Shown here: positions 2,174-60,320 of the stretch, one piece after another
Numbering within the stretch: the first letter of the stretch is position 1
Layout of the letters: every line of letters starts with the position of its first letter
Source of the DNA: an uncultured Acidimicrobiia bacterium
GTDB taxonomy: Bacteria; Actinomycetota; Acidimicrobiia; Spongiisociales; ZC4RG35
Length of the DNA stretch: 64,000 nt
Assembly: GCA_963772815.1 (NCBI GenBank)
Contig: CAVYYV010000005.1
Span: 318,626 to 382,625 of the forward strand
Reading direction: 5' to 3'
The notes under the pieces: model-generated
What the model saw: the letters and a program-made list of their open reading frames with translations, nothing else
Database searches by the model: none
Told to the model about the DNA's origin: nothing
Program-made: the position numbers and the translations under genes

Positions 2174-4333
2174 ATGACTACCACCCACGACCTCCAGCTC
2201 ACCCACTTCCGACTCGACGTCGACGAGGGCCTGGCCACCGTCACCATCGACAAGCAGGGAGAGACGCTCAACACACTCGATCCATCCCTGATGGAGGACT
2301 TCACCACCCTCCTGGACCGTCTCGAGTCCGACCCCGACATTCGAGCGGTGGTTCTCGTCTCCGCAAAGGAGGACGGCTTCGTGGCCGGTGCCAACCTCCG
2401 CTGGATTGCCGAGCTGACCGATGCCGCCGCGGCCAGCGAGGCGATAGGTCAGGGACGGGTGATCTACGACCGCCTCGAGGCGCTCCACACTCAGCGAGCC
2501 AAGCCGGTGGTGGCTGCCATTCACGGTGCCTGTTTGGGCGGCGGAATGGAGCTGGCCCTGGCCTGCTCCCATCGCATCGTGACGGACCATCCCAAGACCC
2601 AGCTCGGTCAGCCTGAAGTACAGCTGGGCTTGATCCCGGCCGGGGGCGGGACCCAGCGACTCCCCGAGTTGATCGGAGTGGTCCCCGCTCTCGACCTGCT
2701 CCTGACCGGCAAGTCGGTACGGCCCAAGAAAGCTCTACGTCTGGGCCTGGCAGACGAGGTGGTGCCGGCGACCATTCTGGTCGGCATCGCCCGGGATCGG
2801 GCCCGGGCCGCGATTGGGGCGGCACCCGCCGACGACGGCGGTCTGCGCCAATGGTTGTCCGGCAGCGGCCTGCAGAAGCTGGCCCTGGAGACCAACCCGG
2901 TGGGTCTAGCCATCCTCTTCCGCCAGGCCCGCCAGAAGATGCTCTCCCAGACGCGCGGAAACTACCCGGCTCCACCCAAGATCCTCGAGGCGGTCCGGAT
3001 CGGAGTGCAGGAGGGTCGAGATGCCGGCCTGGAAGCCGAAGCCCGTTTCTTCGGTGAGCTGGTCACGTCCCCCGAGTCGCTGGCTCTCAGATCCGTATTC
3101 TTCGCCACCCGGTCCCAGCCCGACACGTCCGGCGCCCATGACGTCGTGCGAGTGGGGATCGTGGGCGGCGGTCTGATGGGAGCCGGCATCGCCACCGTGT
3201 CCAGCCAGAAGGCCGGGAGCCTGGTCCGAGTCAAGGAGGTCGACGAGGACGGGGTGGCCCGTGCCCTCGCCTACGTCTCCGAGGCCCTGCATTCGCGGGT
3301 GCAACGACATCGGATGAGCGAGTTCGAGGCCGAAAAGGCAATGCTGGCGGTGACCGGCACCACCAACTGGTCTGGCTTCCCGGCCGTCGACCTGGTCATC
3401 GAGGCCGTGTTCGAAGACCTGGAGCTGAAGAAGAACGTCCTCCGCGAGGTCGAGGGTGTGGTCGGCCCCGACACGGTGATCGCCTCCAACACCTCCTCGC
3501 TACCCATCACCTCCATCGCCGCCGCCTCTTCGCACCCGGAGAGAGTGGTGGGTATGCACTACTTCTCCCCGGTCGAGAAGATGCCTCTTCTGGAGGTCAT
3601 CGTCACCGACGACACGGCCGACTGGGTAGAAGCAACCGCCGTCGCCTACGGCTTACAGCAGGGCAAGACCGTCATCGTGGTGTCCGACGGCACCGGGTTC
3701 TACACCAGCCGCATCCTCGGTCCCTACTCGACGGAGGCATTTCGCTTGCTCTCCGAGGGAGCGACGGTCGAGGACATCGACGGCGCGGTTGAAGCCTGGG
3801 GATTCCCGGTCGGCCCGCTCCGGCTGGCCGACGAGGTGGGGATCGATGTGGGCGCCAAGATCGCCGTGATCCTCACCGATGCCTTCGGAGAGCGCATGAC
3901 GCCGCCGGCCGGAATGGGCGGCCTGACCGCATCCGGCCGCAAAGGCCGAAAGAACGGCAAGGGGTTCTACACCTACGAGAACGGCAAGCGCGGTGGCGTC
4001 GACGCGACCGTGTATGAGGATCTGGGGGTGGCGGCGACGGGAGGCATCGACCGCGCCGAGATCCAGGAGCGAGTCAGCCTGGCTCTCATCAACGAAGCTG
4101 CCCGCTGTCTGGAAGAGGGCATCCTGCACTCGGCCCGCGACGGCGACATCGGTGCGGTAATGGGCATCGGATTTCCCCCCTTCAGGGGTGGCCCGTTCTT
4201 CTGGATCGATCAGGTTGGAGCCGGCCAGGTCGTCGAGCGGCTGGAACGCCTGGCCGACCGGCACGGACCCCGCTTCGCCCCCGCCGAGATCCTGGTGGAG
4301 GCGGCCGCCTCGGGGCGGAAGTTCCGGGACTAG
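2174..4333 (+). CDS. fadB: fatty-acid oxidation multifunctional protein (enoyl-CoA hydratase/isomerase + 3-hydroxyacyl-CoA dehydrogenase)
   Basis: 719 aa. N-terminal crotonase-fold region (VVLVSAKEDGFVAGANL...AAIHGACLGGGMELALAC). Central NAD-binding region VGIVGGGLMGAGIA with 3-hydroxyacyl-CoA dehydrogenase-type C-terminus. Follows the thiolase as in actinobacterial fadA-fadB. Confidence 0.88.
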   Translation: MTTTHDLQLTHFRLDVDEGLATVTIDKQGETLNTLDPSLMEDFTTLLDRLESDPDIRAVVLVSAKEDGFVAGANLRWIAELTDAAAASEAIGQGRVIYDRLEALHTQRAKPVVAAIHGACLGGGMELALACSHRIVTDHPKTQLGQPEVQLGLIPAGGGTQRLPELIGVVPALDLLLTGKSVRPKKALRLGLADEVVPATILVGIARDRARAAIGAAPADDGGLRQWLSGSGLQKLALETNPVGLAILFRQARQKMLSQTRGNYPAPPKILEAVRIGVQEGRDAGLEAEARFFGELVTSPESLALRSVFFATRSQPDTSGAHDVVRVGIVGGGLMGAGIATVSSQKAGSLVRVKEVDEDGVARALAYVSEALHSRVQRHRMSEFEAEKAMLAVTGTTNWSGFPAVDLVIEAVFEDLELKKNVLREVEGVVGPDTVIASNTSSLPITSIAAASSHPERVVGMHYFSPVEKMPLLEVIVTDDTADWVEATAVAYGLQQGKTVIVVSDGTGFYTSRILGPYSTEAFRLLSEGATVEDIDGAVEAWGFPVGPLRLADEVGIDVGAKIAVILTDAFGERMTPPAGMGGLTASGRKGRKNGKGFYTYENGKRGGVDATVYEDLGVAATGGIDRAEIQERVSLALINEAARCLEEGILHSARDGDIGAVMGIGFPPFRGGPFFWIDQVGAGQVVERLERLADRHGPRFAPAEILVEAAASGRKFRD

Positions 4334-9006: not shown

Positions 9007-10830
9007 TCAGGACATCGCCACGGTGCCCCGTCTCCACGACTCGTACAGATGCCCGTATACACCGCCCTCCGTCAGGAGCTCCTCATGGGTGCCGTCCTGG
9101 ACCAGTCGGCCGTGGTCGAAGACGAGGACCCGGTCCGCCTTCTCGGCGGTGGACATGCGATGGGCGATGGTGACCACGGTCCTCCCGCTGGCCAGCTCGT
9201 CCATGGCCCGGGCGATCCGGACCTCGGTGGCCGGGTCCACGGCCGAGGTCGCCTCATCCAGAACCAGCAGATCCGGGTCGGCAATGGCGGCCCGCACCAG
9301 AGTGACCAGTTGCCTCTCTCCCACCGAGAGGGCGCTGCCCCGCTCGCCGACGGGGGTTCCCAGCCCGGCAGCCAGCTCATCCAGCCAACCCTCCAGGGCC
9401 AGTGCCTCGAAGGCGCCTCGCACGTGCTCGTCAGAGGCGTCCGGACGGCCCATCCTCACGTTGTCAGCGATCGTGCCGGAGAACAGCATCCCTTCCTGGG
9501 GCACCATCACCACCCGGTCCCGCAAGGAGTCGAAACGAACCGTTGACACGTCGACGTCCCCCACTCTGACCACTCCTTCGGTCGGATCCATCAGCCGGGT
9601 GAGTAGCTTGGCGAAGGTGGTCTTTCCGGACCCGGTCTCACCCACCACAGCCACCTTCTGGCGGGGCTCGATGCGGACATCGAGCCCCGTGAGCGCAGCA
9701 GAGCCGGTGGCGGCCTCGGCCGACTCGCCCGGCTTGGGATAGCGAAACGTGACTCCGGCGAAGGTCACTCCGAGCGGCCAGTCGGGTAGGGCCACTCCTT
9801 TCGCTCCCGGATCGGCCACGTCGGGGGGAATTCCCAGGATGTCGAGAACCCGCCGCCATCCGGCCACCGCGGTCTGAGCCTCGTTCACCGCCTCGCCCAG
9901 GACCTGGACCGGCTGGATGAACAACTGGACCAGGAACAAGAAGGCCACCACCCGGCCCACCGTGGTCAGGCCGTGAACCGCCAGCAGAGTCCCCACCACC
10001 ACCACCCAGGCCAGGACAAAGCCAGACAGGATCTCACCGGCCCCGGAGAACGCAGCCGAGAGGCTCCCGGCCTCTACTCCGGCTCGGCGATGCTCCTCGA
10101 TCGCCAGCCCCAGCCGCCGCTGGATCCTGCCCTCGATTCCGTAAGCGCGAATCACCGGGGCCCCGACGACGACCTCGGCCAGCACTGCCAGCATCCGGCC
10201 CACCTTCTCACGCACGATCAGGTAAGCCCTGTCGAGCCTGCTCTGAAACCAGCGCATGGTCAGCACGATGATCGGTAGGGACGCCACCACCACCCCGGCC
10301 AGCGGAGGCGAGTAGAACACCATCACGACCAGCGCCAGGAGGGCCTGGCCTCCGTTGGTGATCAGCATCAACCCGGCCCACTGCATGAAGCGGCTGATCT
10401 CGTCGACATCGGAGGTGACCCGGGAAACGAGGGACCCCCTCTGCTCCGAGGCCTGATGGAGCATGGAGAGGTCGTGGATGTGCCGAAAAGCACGGATACG
10501 CAGGCCTGAGAGGGCCGTCTCCGACACCTTGGCCAAACGCACGTTCATCCACCCAGTCGCCCCGGCCGTCACGATCACCGCCCCCAGCGCCAGGAGGCAC
10601 ATCCTGATGACGAACTTCATGTCGACCTGTCCCGCACTCAGACCGCCGTCCAGTATCTGTTGGATGGCGATGGGGACCACGACCCGGCCCGCTGTCGCCA
10701 CCAGAGCCAGAAGCAACGTTCCCGGCAGCCCACGACGCAACTCCGGGGAGAGGCGGAGACCCCGCTTGATCGTCTTCCAGGCACCGGAACGGGCCCGGCC
10801 GGAGTTCCTCGGGGCCGCCACAGCCGTCAC
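9007..10830 (-). CDS. ABC transporter, fused permease/ATP-binding exporter
   Basis: 607 aa. TM domain followed by GETGSGKTT Walker A, LSVGERQL signature-like and LVLDEATSAVD Walker B. Start overlaps the upstream ABC gene by 4 bp. Confidence 0.82.
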   Translation of the reverse strand: MTAVAAPRNSGRARSGAWKTIKRGLRLSPELRRGLPGTLLLALVATAGRVVVPIAIQQILDGGLSAGQVDMKFVIRMCLLALGAVIVTAGATGWMNVRLAKVSETALSGLRIRAFRHIHDLSMLHQASEQRGSLVSRVTSDVDEISRFMQWAGLMLITNGGQALLALVVMVFYSPPLAGVVVASLPIIVLTMRWFQSRLDRAYLIVREKVGRMLAVLAEVVVGAPVIRAYGIEGRIQRRLGLAIEEHRRAGVEAGSLSAAFSGAGEILSGFVLAWVVVVGTLLAVHGLTTVGRVVAFLFLVQLFIQPVQVLGEAVNEAQTAVAGWRRVLDILGIPPDVADPGAKGVALPDWPLGVTFAGVTFRYPKPGESAEAATGSAALTGLDVRIEPRQKVAVVGETGSGKTTFAKLLTRLMDPTEGVVRVGDVDVSTVRFDSLRDRVVMVPQEGMLFSGTIADNVRMGRPDASDEHVRGAFEALALEGWLDELAAGLGTPVGERGSALSVGERQLVTLVRAAIADPDLLVLDEATSAVDPATEVRIARAMDELASGRTVVTIAHRMSTAEKADRVLVFDHGRLVQDGTHEELLTEGGVYGHLYESWRRGTVAMS

Positions 10831-48067: not shown

Positions 48068-48113
48068 CTATGTGTTTTTATCAGCAAAACGGGACCCAGG
48101 AGGGTCCGTTTTG
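48064..48113. repeat. Palindromic terminator-like repeat element, copy A (GTTTTTATCAGCAAAACGGGACCCAGGAGGGTCCGTTTTGCAGGGGAGAA)
   Basis: Perfect AAAACGGGACCC / GGGTCCCGTTTT inverted repeat with conserved flanks TTTATCAGC and CAGGGGAGAA. Same element at ~54.0, 59.7 and 60.3 kb. Confidence 0.75.
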
Positions 48114-53935: not shown

Positions 53936-53992
53936 GGAGGGAGGCTACCTGGAGGCGTTGCGAACCCGGGCCTTTGGGGGTGGAGTCGCATT

Positions 53993-54044
53993 CTCCCCTG
54001 CAAAACGGACCCTCCAGGGTCCCGTTTTGCTGATAAAAACGCGA
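53993..54044. repeat. Palindromic terminator-like repeat element, copy B (inverted orientation)
   Basis: TTCTCCCCTGCAAAACGGACCCTCCAGGGTCCCGTTTTGCTGATAAAAACGCG, the reverse complement of the copy-A consensus. Lies between the epimerase and clpB genes. Confidence 0.75.
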
Positions 54045-54058
54045 GAGGGGGGGCCGGG

Positions 54059-56626
<2,568 letters not shown>

Positions 56627-56646
56627 TTGATCACTCCATTAGGAAA

Positions 56647-56667
56647 TCTGAGTCCAATCATATCAAG
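56647..56667. promoter_or_regulatory. Candidate HspR operator (HAIR-like) TCTGAGT-CCAATCA-TATCAAG upstream of clpB
   Basis: On the clpB strand it reads CTTGATA-TGATTGG-ACTCAGA versus the HAIR consensus CTTGAGT-N7-ACTCAAG (11/14 matches, correct 7-bp spacer). ~25 bp upstream of the clpB start. Confidence 0.45.
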
Positions 56668-56734
56668 GTCGTAGAGCGGGCGTGTATTCCGAGATTTCCC
56701 CGGATTCGCCCAGCGGGCTTCGGGCGTGGCCGGC

Positions 56735-57115
56735 TCAGAGGATCAGGGTGAGCCGGCGGTTGAGAGCATCGAGGACGGCCCGGGCCGTGGCCAGAACGGT
56801 GTCCCCTCGGCGGATGAGTGCCGAGCCGACGTACACGTCGGGACGCCCCGGCTCGGCCACCTGCACTAGGGCGATCGTTACACCGTCTATGGTGGAGGTG
56901 CCGACCGCGCTCAGTTCGAAACGGGCCGATCCCGTCACCGACTCCAGGGCCCGAAGGGTGGCCTCTCCCACCACCCGGGGACGAAGAGCACGATCGGCGG
57001 CGCCCTCCGCCCGGCCGTGATGCTCCTTGCCCTCCGCCTCGAGCACCACCGAAACGGCCACGTGATCTCCGAGCTCCACGTCGACGGAGCGCAACACCGG
57101 TCTGTCGAAGTCCAT
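56735..57115 (-). CDS. hypothetical protein
   Basis: C-terminal 126 aa of ORF 56735..57250 (from MDFDRPVLRSVDVELGD...) has high GC3 and protein-like composition (…ATLRALESVTGSARFELSAVGTSTIDGVTIALVQV…ARAVLDALNRRL). The upstream extension conflicts with the mscL remnant on the opposite strand. Confidence 0.45.
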   Translation of the reverse strand: MDFDRPVLRSVDVELGDHVAVSVVLEAEGKEHHGRAEGAADRALRPRVVGEATLRALESVTGSARFELSAVGTSTIDGVTIALVQVAEPGRPDVYVGSALIRRGDTVLATARAVLDALNRRLTLIL

Positions 57116-57187
57116 CGCCCTGACGATAGCCAGCAGATACCGGTGGTAGCCTCGCCAGCACTCGATCGACCCGAAAGGGAAAGAGCG

Positions 57188-57417
57188 ATGATCAAGGAAC
57201 TCAAGGAGTTCATCAGGCCACCGGCCTTCCCGCCGGATCAGTGGGAGCATTCATCGGCGCATTGATAGAGTTCATCGTCATCGCCTGGGTCCTGTTTCTG
57301 GTGGTCAGGGCCTACACCCGCACGCGCCCGGCACCCGAAGAAGCTCCTGAGCCCGGCCCCTCCGAAGAGGTGGTTCTCCTGACCGAGATCCGCGACAGCC
57401 TGTGCCAGGGCTGAAGA
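57188..57417 (+). pseudogene. mscL: mscL remnant: MscL N-terminus (MIKELKEFIR) joined out of frame to MscL TM2 plus C-terminal helix, with TM1 and the periplasmic loop missing
   Basis: Frame 2 from ATG ~57188 reads MIKELKEFIRPPAFPPDQWEHSSAH-stop. Frame 1 from ~57241 reads (V)GAFIGALIEFIVIAWVLFLVVRAYTRTRPAPEEAPEPGPSEEVVLLTEIRDSLCQG-stop, matching the MscL TM2 and C-terminus (compare EEVLLTEIRDLL in E. coli/M. tuberculosis MscL). No RGNVVDLAVGVIIG segment in any frame. Confidence 0.6.
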
Positions 57418-57551
57418 TCGGGCACCACGAAGACCTGGGTTCGGCACCGGAATCGGGCCGCGTCTCGACCTCGATCCAGCGGTTGACTACCTGTTGGCGC
57501 CTGCTACCGTTCTATGCATGATAGCTGGCAGCCTAAGGTAGGCGACAGCCG

Positions 57552-57905
57552 ATGGTGGACAGTGCCGTGCGACCAGACCGAGGTACACAGCTCCTCAAAG
57601 GCGTGCTCGACATGTGCTTGCTGTCCATCATCGGAGAGGAGCCGTCATATGGATACGAGATGGTGCGAAAACTCCAGGACCGGGGGCTCAGCCTGGTCAG
57701 CGAGGGGTCGATCTACCCCCTGTTGTCGCGTCTGCAGAAGGGCGGTCTCCTCGACGGGTTCCTGGTGCAGTCGTCAGAGGGCCCGGCCCGCAAGTACTAC
57801 CGGATCACCGATTCGGGCACGGGTGCTCTGGAAAAGTGGACCCAGGAGTGGAATCGGTTTCGCGACGGCGTCGAGGACGTGCTGAGGGGTGGGGACGATG
57901 ACTGA
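57552..57905 (+). CDS. PadR family transcriptional regulator
   Basis: 117 aa with the PadR winged-helix signature (LLKGVLDMCLLSIIGEEPSYGYEMVRKL...GSIYPLLSRLQKGGLL...KYYRITDSG). Confidence 0.88.
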   Translation: MVDSAVRPDRGTQLLKGVLDMCLLSIIGEEPSYGYEMVRKLQDRGLSLVSEGSIYPLLSRLQKGGLLDGFLVQSSEGPARKYYRITDSGTGALEKWTQEWNRFRDGVEDVLRGGDDD

Positions 57906-58686
57906 CATCGACGCCCTGGTCGAGGATTGTGCCCGCTACTGGGCCCAGACCGGTGTGCCCCGCGGGGCGGTGCAGGAAATGACCCTCGAACTGACCAACC
58001 ATTTATGCGACGCCGAGAATGAGGGCAGGCAGGCCACGGCCGTCATCGGGCCGGACGTGGCCGAGTTCGCCGAGGCGTGGGCGTTCGAACGTCGACGGGG
58101 CCGCCCCCGGGCCAGCTGGGAAGATGTCATGAGCGGTCGAACCGAGAGGGACAAGCGGAAGCGACGCGAGCTCGTCGCATACGGAGCCGGAGCCGCGGCC
58201 CTAGTCGCGGCCGTGGCGGTGATCGGGAAAGGAGCCAACGAAATGGACAACGAGATTTGGCGCTGGCTGTGGACTGGGCTGGCGGTGGTGATGGCGATCG
58301 GCGAGATGTTCACAGCCGGGTTCTTCCTCCTGCCGTTTTCCATTGGAGCTGCTTGCGCGGCCGTCCTCGCCTGGATCGGAGTGGGGGTCCTGGCCCAATG
58401 GCTGGTCTTCTTCGGCGTGTCGGGGCTCGCCCTGGCCTATCTGCGCCGCTACATCACCCGCCAGGACGAAGGCGAACAGCCCCGGGTGGGCGCCAACCGC
58501 TGGATCGGCTCCACGGGAGTGGTGCTGGAAGCGATCGACCCGGACACGGCCAGCGGCATGGTGCGGGTCGAGAACGAGGAGTGGAGAGCAGCGTCCGAGC
58601 ACGGGAGCATCATCCCCGCCGGATCGCGAATCCATGTCATCAGAGTGCGCGGAGCCCGACTGGTGGTCGAGCCGTATGAGAACTGA
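57889..58686 (+). CDS. NfeD-like membrane protein with an N-terminal soluble helical extension
   Basis: 265 aa. ~110-aa soluble N-terminus, two to three TM helices, then a C-terminal OB-fold-like segment (WIGSTGVVLEAIDPDTASGMVRVENEEWRAASEH...IHVIRVRGARLVVEP) typical of NfeD partners of SPFH proteins. Overlaps the padR stop. Confidence 0.6.
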   Translation: MGTMTDIDALVEDCARYWAQTGVPRGAVQEMTLELTNHLCDAENEGRQATAVIGPDVAEFAEAWAFERRRGRPRASWEDVMSGRTERDKRKRRELVAYGAGAAALVAAVAVIGKGANEMDNEIWRWLWTGLAVVMAIGEMFTAGFFLLPFSIGAACAAVLAWIGVGVLAQWLVFFGVSGLALAYLRRYITRQDEGEQPRVGANRWIGSTGVVLEAIDPDTASGMVRVENEEWRAASEHGSIIPAGSRIHVIRVRGARLVVEPYEN

Positions 58687-58737
58687 ATTCTTCCCACAAC
58701 TTCATACATTTACGTCGAGAGAGAAAGGTAGGAGGCA

Positions 58738-59709
58738 ATGCCAGCAGTAGTCATCCTGTTCGCGGTCCTGGCGCTGGCGATCATCCTGATCGCAGCCGCA
58801 GGCTTCAGGGTTGTGCGACCCTTCGAGAAGGGCCTGATCGAGTTCCTGGGCCGTTACGAGAAGACGGTCGATTCTGGGCTGCGATGGGTCATGCCCTTCG
58901 TCAAGAGGATCATCAAGGTCGACATGCGTGAGCAGGTGGTCGACGTTCCGCCCCAGGAGGTCATCACCAAGGACAACGTGGTCGTAACCGTGGACGCGGT
59001 CATCTACTACGAGGCCACAGACCCGGTGAAGCTGAAGTACAACGTGGGCCAGTTCATCCTGGCCGTCACGAAGCTGGCCCAGACCAACCTCCGTAACGTG
59101 GTGGGCGACCTCGACCTCGACGCGGCCCTCACTTCGCGGGAGGTCATCAACGCCAAGCTGCGCCAGATCCTCGACGATGCCACCGATAAGTGGGGCGTCC
59201 GTGTGGTTCGGGTCGAGATCCAACGCATCGAGCCGCCCGCCGACGTCACCGACGCCATGCACCGCCAGATGAAGGCGGAGCGGGATCGGCGGGCATTGGT
59301 CACCGAGGCCGAGGGCGCCAAGCGGGCCGCCATCCTGCGTGCCGAGGGCGTCAAGGAGTCCCAGGTGCTGGAGGCGGATGGTCAGGCCGAGGCCATCAAG
59401 CGAGTGGCCGATGCCGAGCGCTACCAGAAGGAAACAGTGGCCGAGGGCGAGGGCCGGGCCATCGAGCGGGTCTACTCCGCCATCCACACCGGGGATCCCA
59501 CCCCCGACCTGATCGCCATCCGTTACCTGGAGGCCCTCCAGGGCGTGGCCAACGGGAAGGCGACCAAGATCTTCCTGCCCCTCGACACCTCAGGAGTTCT
59601 TGGCTCGGTGGCCGCCATCAGCGAGCTCTTCAAGGAAGACGGCCAACCCCCCACCACCACCGACGGCGGCTCCGCGTCCAGCGGCTCGGGTCCCTCCTAC
59701 GGGGGCTGA
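58738..59709 (+). CDS. SPFH/band-7 (stomatin/prohibitin-like) family protein
   Basis: 323 aa. N-terminal TM anchor, SPFH core ([32 protein letters not shown]...[16 protein letters not shown]), coiled-coil Ala/Glu-rich tail. Confidence 0.88.
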
Positions 59710-59711
59710 TC

Positions 59712-59768
59712 CGCGTTTTTATCAGCAAAACGGCCCCTCAGAGGGGCCGTTTTGCAGGGGAGAACGCG
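59712..59768. repeat. Palindromic terminator-like repeat element, copy C
   Basis: CGCGTTTTTATCAGCAAAACGGCCCCTCAGAGGGGCCGTTTTGCAGGGGAGAACGCG. Stem AAAACGGCCCC/GGGGCCGTTTT (compensatory change relative to copy A). Terminal CGCG...CGCG. Directly after the SPFH stop. Confidence 0.75.
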
Positions 59769-59789
59769 TCCAGCTCCCCGCCGACCCGG

Positions 59790-60260: not shown

Positions 60261-60317
60261 CGCGTTCTCCCCTACAAGACGGTCCCTGCAGGGTCCCGTT
60301 TTGCTGATAAAGACGCG
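60261..60317. repeat. Palindromic terminator-like repeat element, copy D (inverted, slightly degenerate stem)
   Basis: CGCGTTCTCCCCTACAAGACGGTCCCTGCAGGGTCCCGTTTTGCTGATAAAGACGCG. Located between the ydeI-like gene and the lipoprotein gene. Confidence 0.7.
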
Positions 60318-60320
60318 GAA

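Follow-up and report, generated by a model that had tools for sequence, protein, structure and literature searches.

An uncultured Acidimicrobiia bacterium carries what is best read as a recent, non-functional remnant (pseudogene) of mscL, produced by a single 160-nt deletion; a probability of about 0.85 is given to this reading. MscL is the large-conductance mechanosensitive channel, which acts as an osmotic safety valve, and the bacterium is of a soil type. The locus lies in a stretch of 64,000 nucleotides (64 kb), all of which was analysed and which is called the window below; positions refer to it unless another contig is named. The remnant is 227 nt long, compared with 387 nt in intact orthologues. 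The finding is ordinary in kind, a young pseudogene from a single non-homologous deletion. The features of the locus are as follows.

57188-57414, plus strand: probable mscL pseudogene in full, bounded by the ancestral ATG and the ancestral TGA stop (57412-57414) (alignments, BLASTN, Pfam and NCBIfam)
57188-57215, plus strand: 5' piece, codons 1-9 (MIKELKEFI, amphipathic N-terminal helix) and the first base of codon 10
57215-57216, plus strand: deletion junction, TTCATCA joined to GGCCACC, 160 nt absent relative to intact orthologues
57217-57414, plus strand: 3' piece, codons 64-128 and the stop (translation, Pfam, protein alignment)
57188-57265, plus strand: frameshifted 25-aa ORF, MIKELKEFIRPPAFPPDQWEHSSAH and a stop (translation from the ancestral start)
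57241-57414, plus strand: 57-aa ORF with TM2 and the C-terminal helix, GTG start, called as protein P0001 in the public annotation
56735-57115, minus strand: conserved 126-aa gene (MDFDRPVL...), function not assigned, divergent from mscL and without overlap with the remnant
57116-57187, no strand: divergent intergenic region of 72 nt between the small gene and mscL

The window and the relative L001 are collinear in BLASTN over ~12 kb at 82-83% nucleotide identity, with one break, of 160 nt, inside mscL. At the edges of the BLASTN segments window position 57215 equals L001 position 5903 and also L001 position 5743, and therefore exactly 160 nt are missing. The identical gap is found against L167 and L168, each with an intact 387-nt gene. 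The deletion begins at base 2 of codon 10 and ends at base 2 of codon 63, and the frame is shifted because 160 (3 x 53 + 1) is no multiple of 3. The lost residues, mapped via the L001 protein aligned to the E. coli MscL structure 9tiv (residues 4-130, E-value 2.6e-21), are the end of the N-terminal helix (RGN), TM1 in its entirety and about two-thirds of the periplasmic loop. TM1 of MscL lines the pore and forms the gate. Nine residues at the N-terminus survive, as do the final eight of the loop (ATGLPAGS) and, beyond them, TM2 and the C-terminal helix. The 5' piece can be aligned base for base with the intact mscL start in L001, L167 and L168; the DNA alignment and the synteny, and not the nine-residue match alone, indicate that its nine codons are orthologous to that start. 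The junction reads TTCATCA joined to GGCCACCGG, where intact genes read TTCATCA-AYCGNGG...ATCGACGA-GGCCACCGG. The two ends share one base (A), a positional ambiguity or microhomology of 1 nt, and no direct repeat is present at the deletion endpoints in the intact gene, for which reason a repeat-mediated deletion or a collapsed repeat was rejected. A 9-nt inverted repeat with one arm from the right endpoint has its partner 25 nt inside the deletion and explains nothing.

From the ATG at 57188 the frame reads MIKELKEFI and then, out of frame, ...RPPAFPPDQWEHSSAH, with the stop TGA at 57263-57265. The frame of base 57190 reads ...ATGLPAGSVGAFIGALIEFIVIAWVLFLVVRAYTRTRPAPEEAPEPGPSEEVVLLTEIRDSLCQG up to the stop at 57412-57414, and its first start codon is the GTG at 57241. 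Read in the -1 frame with respect to the ATG, the 3' piece encodes the last part of the periplasmic loop, then TM2 and the C-terminal helix of the cytoplasmic side (EEVVLLTEIRDSL), and its 65 retained C-terminal codons are free of stops and indels. A Shine-Dalgarno-like GAAAGGG (57173-57179), which is ancestral, is retained 8 nt upstream of the ATG at 57188. At the GTG the sole Shine-Dalgarno-like bases are GGA, 3 nt upstream, a poor match; this GTG is the valine codon of GSVGAF, which is also GTG in the intact L168 gene and GTC in L001 and L167. The 25-aa frameshifted peptide is most likely the sole product that would be translated efficiently, and expression of the 57-aa peptide is speculative. 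Antisense to the remnant lie two further ORFs, 57238-57447 and 57312-57428, both of them shadow ORFs of the kind ordinary in high-GC DNA.

Much of this agrees with the first-pass annotation. Its internal-deletion scar in mscL is borne out by the single break against the collinear intact orthologues L001, L167 and L168, whose alignment at the same locus located the 160-nt gap, and its MIKELKEFI start followed by TM2 and the C-terminal helix in a different frame is confirmed by translation, PF01741 and the DNA alignment. It had counted ~70 absent residues including TM1; the loss of TM1 stands, but 160 nt correspond to about 54 aa (residues 10-63). A 58-aa peptide had been proposed from the GTG at ~57241: the ORF is there, but it encodes 57 aa. 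The end of the remnant had been set at 57417, 3 nt too far.

The 57-aa ORF matches the Pfam family MscL (PF01741) with an E-value of 1.6e-10 and 41.8 bits (gathering cut-off 27.4). The match is confined to profile positions 71-122 of 123; the remnant thus has both TM2 and the cytoplasmic C-terminal helix with its LLxEIRD motif. All eight NCBIfam MscL equivalog models (TIGR00220 and NF0018xx / NF0105xx) score far under their cut-offs, and they match over no more than the C-terminal ~55 positions of the profiles; the highest score among them is 51.8 bits versus a cut-off of 159, and TIGR00220 reaches 33.3 bits versus 71. In tblastn, for which E. coli and M. tuberculosis MscL served as probes only, the remnant can be aligned to residues 76-129 of the former and 69-123 of the latter. 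The same searches found neither a TM1-like sequence elsewhere in the 64-kb window nor a second mscL within it. TM1, the pore-lining helix with the hydrophobic gate, is absent from the remnant, as codons 10-63 are gone. A continuous frame of about 120-150 codons is likewise absent, given the -1 shift between 57215 and 57216 and the end of the ATG frame after 25 codons. Over what is retained, identity to the intact MscL of the nearest Acidimicrobiia relatives is 81-86%. As the tests for TM1, for an unbroken frame and for the equivalog thresholds all came out negative, the remnant would not qualify as a member of the MscL family in the sense of a functional protein, and appears to be the leftover of one.

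The deletion is genuine and not a mis-assembly, as seen from the assembled contigs, because the same junction is present in a second assembly and in an independent Logan contig. The PadR protein encoded just downstream has exact copies on three other contigs (L161, L162 and L163). L161 (ENA ERZ25039549 contig_24653, 468,606 bp) shares 99.8% identity with the window across 6.3 kb and has the same junction; it differs by seven SNPs and five homopolymer indels, none inside the remnant. L162 (2136 bp, a Logan contig from run ERR11523667) matches 56066-58201 at 100% identity, the junction among it, and L163 (JGI) ends short of the junction. No intact allele with the private substitutions of the window was found among the closest full-length MscL proteins in a collection of 5.8 billion proteins, and therefore no intact allele of the window species was seen. 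A scan of metagenome contigs with the small gene found no contig of the same species, the best being 74% identical. That the gene is intact in the organism, and that the 160-nt gap stems from mis-assembly of the metagenome-assembled genome, is highly improbable. The window is a metagenome-derived contig, and the homopolymer indel errors of L161 imply that such assemblies are not error-free. Yet L161, an assembly with SNPs of its own, has the identical junction, as does L162, which was built independently from the reads of ERR11523667; the breakpoints offer no collapsible repeat; and the protein collection gave no intact allele of the species. The mis-assembly that the first-pass annotation had named as fatal to its reading is contradicted by these two contigs. 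The indels of L161 relative to the window (55607, 56820, 58104-58105 and 58148) split clpB into two calls and shift the frames of the small gene and the nfeD-like gene; the five are probably long-read consensus errors and not biology.

Relatives of the locus were found by a scan of genome contigs with the protein of the minus-strand neighbour, which gave 80 loci, mostly from metagenome-assembled genomes of Acidimicrobiia and other Actinomycetota. In the closest loci an intact mscL adjoins the small gene in divergent orientation, with products of 128 aa (L001), 118 aa (L002), 120 aa (L003), 121 aa (L005), 119 aa (L006) and 128 aa (L007); mscL is also intact at the locus in L081 and L082. A protein search seeded with the L001 MscL gave closer full-length relatives (P0154-P0158), whose contigs L167 and L168 share the gene order. 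In L001, L167 and L168 a 128-aa mscL lies beside the same small gene, with padR on its other side in L001 and L168. Eleven other sampled relatives keep mscL intact and under purifying selection, and an architecture of the remnant type is absent at the locus from every other species sampled. Two types of periplasmic loop occur among the Acidimicrobiia MscL proteins aligned, a longer one, STASLDTWLTFGKIDEATGLPAGS, and one shorter by eight residues, PGIDDLAGIGTFAENGS (L001, L007 and L010 were compared with L002-L006); their distribution is out of step with the similarity ranking of the neighbouring small gene.

On the side of the small gene, a minus-strand ORF of 171 aa (56735-57250) reaches the remnant only via an upstream extension. 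The 123 relatives of the small gene found by tblastn begin to match at query residues 1-46 and none matches in the extension, and the six closest (L001-L006) match from residue 1, the ATG at 57115. In L001-L003 in-frame stops lie 13-22 codons upstream of the start of the small gene, and the extensions show no sequence relationship. The unmatched extension and these stops are the reason why 56735-57115 (126 aa) is taken as the true gene. The overlap with the upstream extension of a minus-strand ORF, noted in the first pass, thus exists at the level of the ORF, but the conserved gene starts 72 nt away from the remnant; the description of the remnant as antisense to a small gene does not hold, as the extension is unconserved. 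Public calls over-extend the small gene, to 171 aa in L162 and, with a frameshift, to 197 aa in L161. Its dN/dS versus L001 is 0.03, a sign of strong purifying selection. The protein has no match in Pfam, NCBIfam or the PDB. In the window the gene lies between clpB and mscL; it adjoins clpB in the closest relatives checked (L001-L007 and L010), and its homologues are widespread among metagenome-assembled genomes of Acidimicrobiia and other Actinomycetota. A TATCGT hexamer resembling a -10 element, 7 nt before its ATG, suggests a leaderless mRNA.

The intergenic region contains two conserved blocks, ACGATAGCC (57123-57131) and TGGTAGCCTCG (57144-57154), whose columns are invariant in the alignments with L001, L167 and L168; they are probable -10 regions of the two divergent genes. 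A scan for sigma-70 consensus promoters and for terminators found nothing, and the Rfam scan gave no match. Downstream of the remnant, 57552-59709 on the plus strand encodes a regulator of the PadR family, a protein of 265 aa whose C-terminal domain is NfeD, and a protein of the SPFH/Band-7 type. These three genes look like one operon because the first two overlap by 17 nt. The order mscL-padR-nfeD is kept in L001, L004 and L168. A well-conserved block before padR, at about 57490-57535, has small inverted repeats (CTACC...GGTAG) around TATGCATGATAGCTGG and could be an operator or promoter of padR.

Pairwise dN/dS was calculated on the 74 retained codons, with all dS within 0.4-1.1. The values for the window are 0.19 versus L001, 0.07 versus L167 and 0.20 versus L168, and pairs of intact genes give 0.08-0.21. 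A raised dN/dS is not seen in the remnant, that is, there is no measurable relaxation at this scale, and the idea of a clearly relaxed selection detectable in these ratios was rejected. Such values are expected of a young deletion, and equally of continued constraint on the fragment. With a dN/dS in the range of intact orthologues, the remnant probably goes back to a recent deletion. Six private substitutions (F5L, N81E, I84V, K94R, N97T and R126C) fall at sites invariant in six intact relatives, versus 0-3 per intact sequence, and the 'perfect' TM2 of the first-pass annotation was an overstatement. When the amino acid differences between window and L001 are polarised by six outgroups, 10 are derived in the window versus 2 in L001 (p = 0.04 against 1:1). 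The same polarisation gives 34:24 in five neighbouring genes, and relative to these the asymmetry of the remnant is not significant (p = 0.07-0.10). The count of private substitutions hints at some decay, and the polarised asymmetry, which is borderline, leans the same way. The deletion would date from after the split from the sampled relatives and from before the window and L161 diverged by 0.1%.

A second lesion of mscL was found in L004 (5650-5934, minus strand), whose small gene is 78% identical to that of the window. There mscL encodes only 75 aa, namely the N-terminal helix, TM1 and the loop, and homology ends where TM2 begins. Directly after the truncation point lies a copy of a ~55-nt hairpin repeat (GCGTTTTTATCAGCRAAACGG...CCGTTTTGC...), in place of TM2 and the C-terminal helix. 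This lesion, seen on one co-assembly contig, is independent of that in the window and suggests that mscL is dispensable in the clade. The ~55-nt intergenic repeat (CGCGTTCTCCCCTGCAAAACGGnCCCTCCAGGGnCCGTTTTGCTGATAAAAACGCG) has four copies in the window, versus 0 expected by chance, at 48071-48091 (minus strand), 53986-54044 (plus), 59712-59769 (minus) and 60261-60320 (plus), and occurs in L001 at 2659-2717, 3209-3266 and 9099-9156. It forms a hairpin of -26.6 kcal/mol with a compensatory stem change (GGACCC/GGGTCC versus GGCCCC/GGGGCC) and lies just past gene ends (clpB and the SPFH gene). These features suggest a REP/MITE-like element or a terminator that belongs to this clade of Acidimicrobiia.

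Proteins of the shape of the 57-aa ORF were sought in public data. HMMER, run exhaustively over 1.84 billion cluster representatives, gave 838 matches, the best being a 130-aa intact MscL at 69% identity, and the matches include a number of 58-65-aa proteins that start just before TM2. Three short TM2-only matches were looked up, and all are on contigs of less than 2 kb. P0012 is cut by the contig edge. P0009 is on a 701-nt contig with about 110 nt upstream, where a 21-aa partial gene is called on the same strand. P0016 (L164, ENA ERZ23499083 scaffold_304798, 260-472) is a 61-aa ORF with the loop end, TM2 and the C-terminal helix on an unrelated metagenome scaffold, and the 260 nt upstream hold no TM1-coding sequence in any frame. 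This shows that 5'-truncated mscL remnants recur and that public data commonly contain remnants or fragments of this sort. The idea that TM2-only 'mini-MscL' proteins form a conserved family was rejected, the short matches examined being contig-edge, short-contig or remnant cases. When the 57-aa fragment was put through a word-index protein search, the fragment itself and one of 48 aa were the only matches, and in an exact look-up neither P0001 nor the 126-aa protein of the small gene was on record.

The following course of events is proposed from these comparisons. Illegitimate recombination of the end-joining type would have removed the 160 nt. The retained promoter and ribosome-binding site would now yield mainly the 25-aa nonsense peptide, whose transcription and translation are likely because the conserved intergenic blocks and the ribosome-binding site have been kept. 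The part for TM2 and the C-terminal helix would still be open in the other frame, and not yet decayed, because there has been too little time. No channel would be made from the locus, since each MscL subunit must contribute TM1 to the pore, and the cell presumably depends on other channels for osmotic release, or its habitat is one where sudden hypo-osmotic shock is rare. That the locus yields no mechanosensitive channel is the best-supported part of this interpretation, which is drawn from sequence comparison.

A functional product of the locus is the chief alternative. The 57-aa ORF could encode a small membrane protein, either a self-associating helix bundle or a modulator of an MscL encoded elsewhere; its open frame free of indels and stops, a dN/dS as low as in intact genes, its report by gene callers (P0001) and the many 58-65-aa TM2-only MscL-like proteins in the representative library would all fit. 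It is nevertheless unlikely to be functional: the Shine-Dalgarno sequence at the GTG is weak, the GTG itself is an ordinary valine codon found also in intact L168, private substitutions at conserved sites are in excess, the three short library matches examined, all on contigs below 2 kb, show no conserved family, and the architecture was not found at the locus in other species. The TM2 half by itself forms no channel, according to the account of Park 2004 given in PMC4786117. The two frames could also be joined by recoding, as the C-terminal frame is -1 relative to the ATG frame and overlaps it for 48 nt; a programmed -1 frameshift between 57215 and 57263 would give a 74-aa single-pass protein with the N-terminal helix and loop, TM2 and the C-terminal part. 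The chance of this is close to nil, as no slippery X XXY YYZ heptamer occurs in the stretch ATC AGG CCA CCG GCC TTC CCG CCG GAT CAG TGG GAG CAT TCA TCG GCG CAT, Rfam gives no structured RNA family, the arrangement is an accident of the 160-nt deletion absent from all relatives, and the 74-aa product would still be without TM1.

The inactivation of MscL could have been selected and not merely tolerated, for example if an open channel offers a route for entry or leakage. Two independent lesions in sister lineages would then be accounted for, and two different lesions do occur among the syntenic relatives, the 160-nt deletion in the window and the loss of TM2 and the C-terminus in L004. But simple dispensability predicts two losses equally well, the eleven other relatives sampled keep mscL intact under purifying selection, and L004 is a single co-assembly contig; adaptive loss is accordingly rated improbable. 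A broader proposal, with only a small chance of being right, is that the locus holds either a newborn 57-aa membrane micropeptide kept by selection (a pentamerising helix bundle or a dominant modulator of a second MscL), with which the intact frame and the low dN/dS are consistent, or one case of repeated adaptive mscL loss in the clade.

Under the preferred reading, a non-functional remnant of a single deletion, P0001 is a 57-aa 'MscL' with a Pfam MscL domain that should be regarded as a dead-gene fragment and not be counted as a mechanosensitive channel. The value of the finding is chiefly one of annotation: two automatic gene calls would be corrected, P0001 and the 171-aa call on the opposite strand, an over-extended 126-aa gene. 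MscL would be dispensable in at least one environmental Acidimicrobiia lineage, and probably in two. This is a small data point on how protection from osmotic downshock varies among uncultured soil and sediment bacteria, and it opens no new question.

Among known systems, the remnant shares the orthologous locus and the promoter region with MscL (PF01741, TIGR00220; structures 2OAR of M. tuberculosis and 9TIV/28OA of E. coli). It keeps nine residues at the N-terminus, eight at the end of the loop, all of TM2 and the LLTEIRD-bearing C-terminal helix, but differs from MscL by the lack of residues 10-63 with all of TM1, by its broken frame and by scores under every NCBIfam equivalog cut-off. The 57-aa ORF corresponds closely to the engineered C-terminal half of MscL (Park, Berrier, Martinac & Ghazi 2004), which consists of TM2 and the C-terminal helix. 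As reported in PMC4786117, this engineered half makes no channel alone and is active only when combined with the TM1 half; in contrast to that system, tblastn detects no TM1 half encoded in the 64-kb window. Truncated or frameshifted mechanosensitive-channel loci are also described for Francisella tularensis subspecies (bioRxiv 10.1101/198184). They resemble the present case as lineage-specific truncations or frameshifts of mechanosensitive-channel genes with intact copies in relatives, but the Francisella loci are of the MscS type and belong to a host-adapted pathogen, whereas here mscL of an environmental member of the Acidimicrobiia is affected by one clean deletion of 160 nt.
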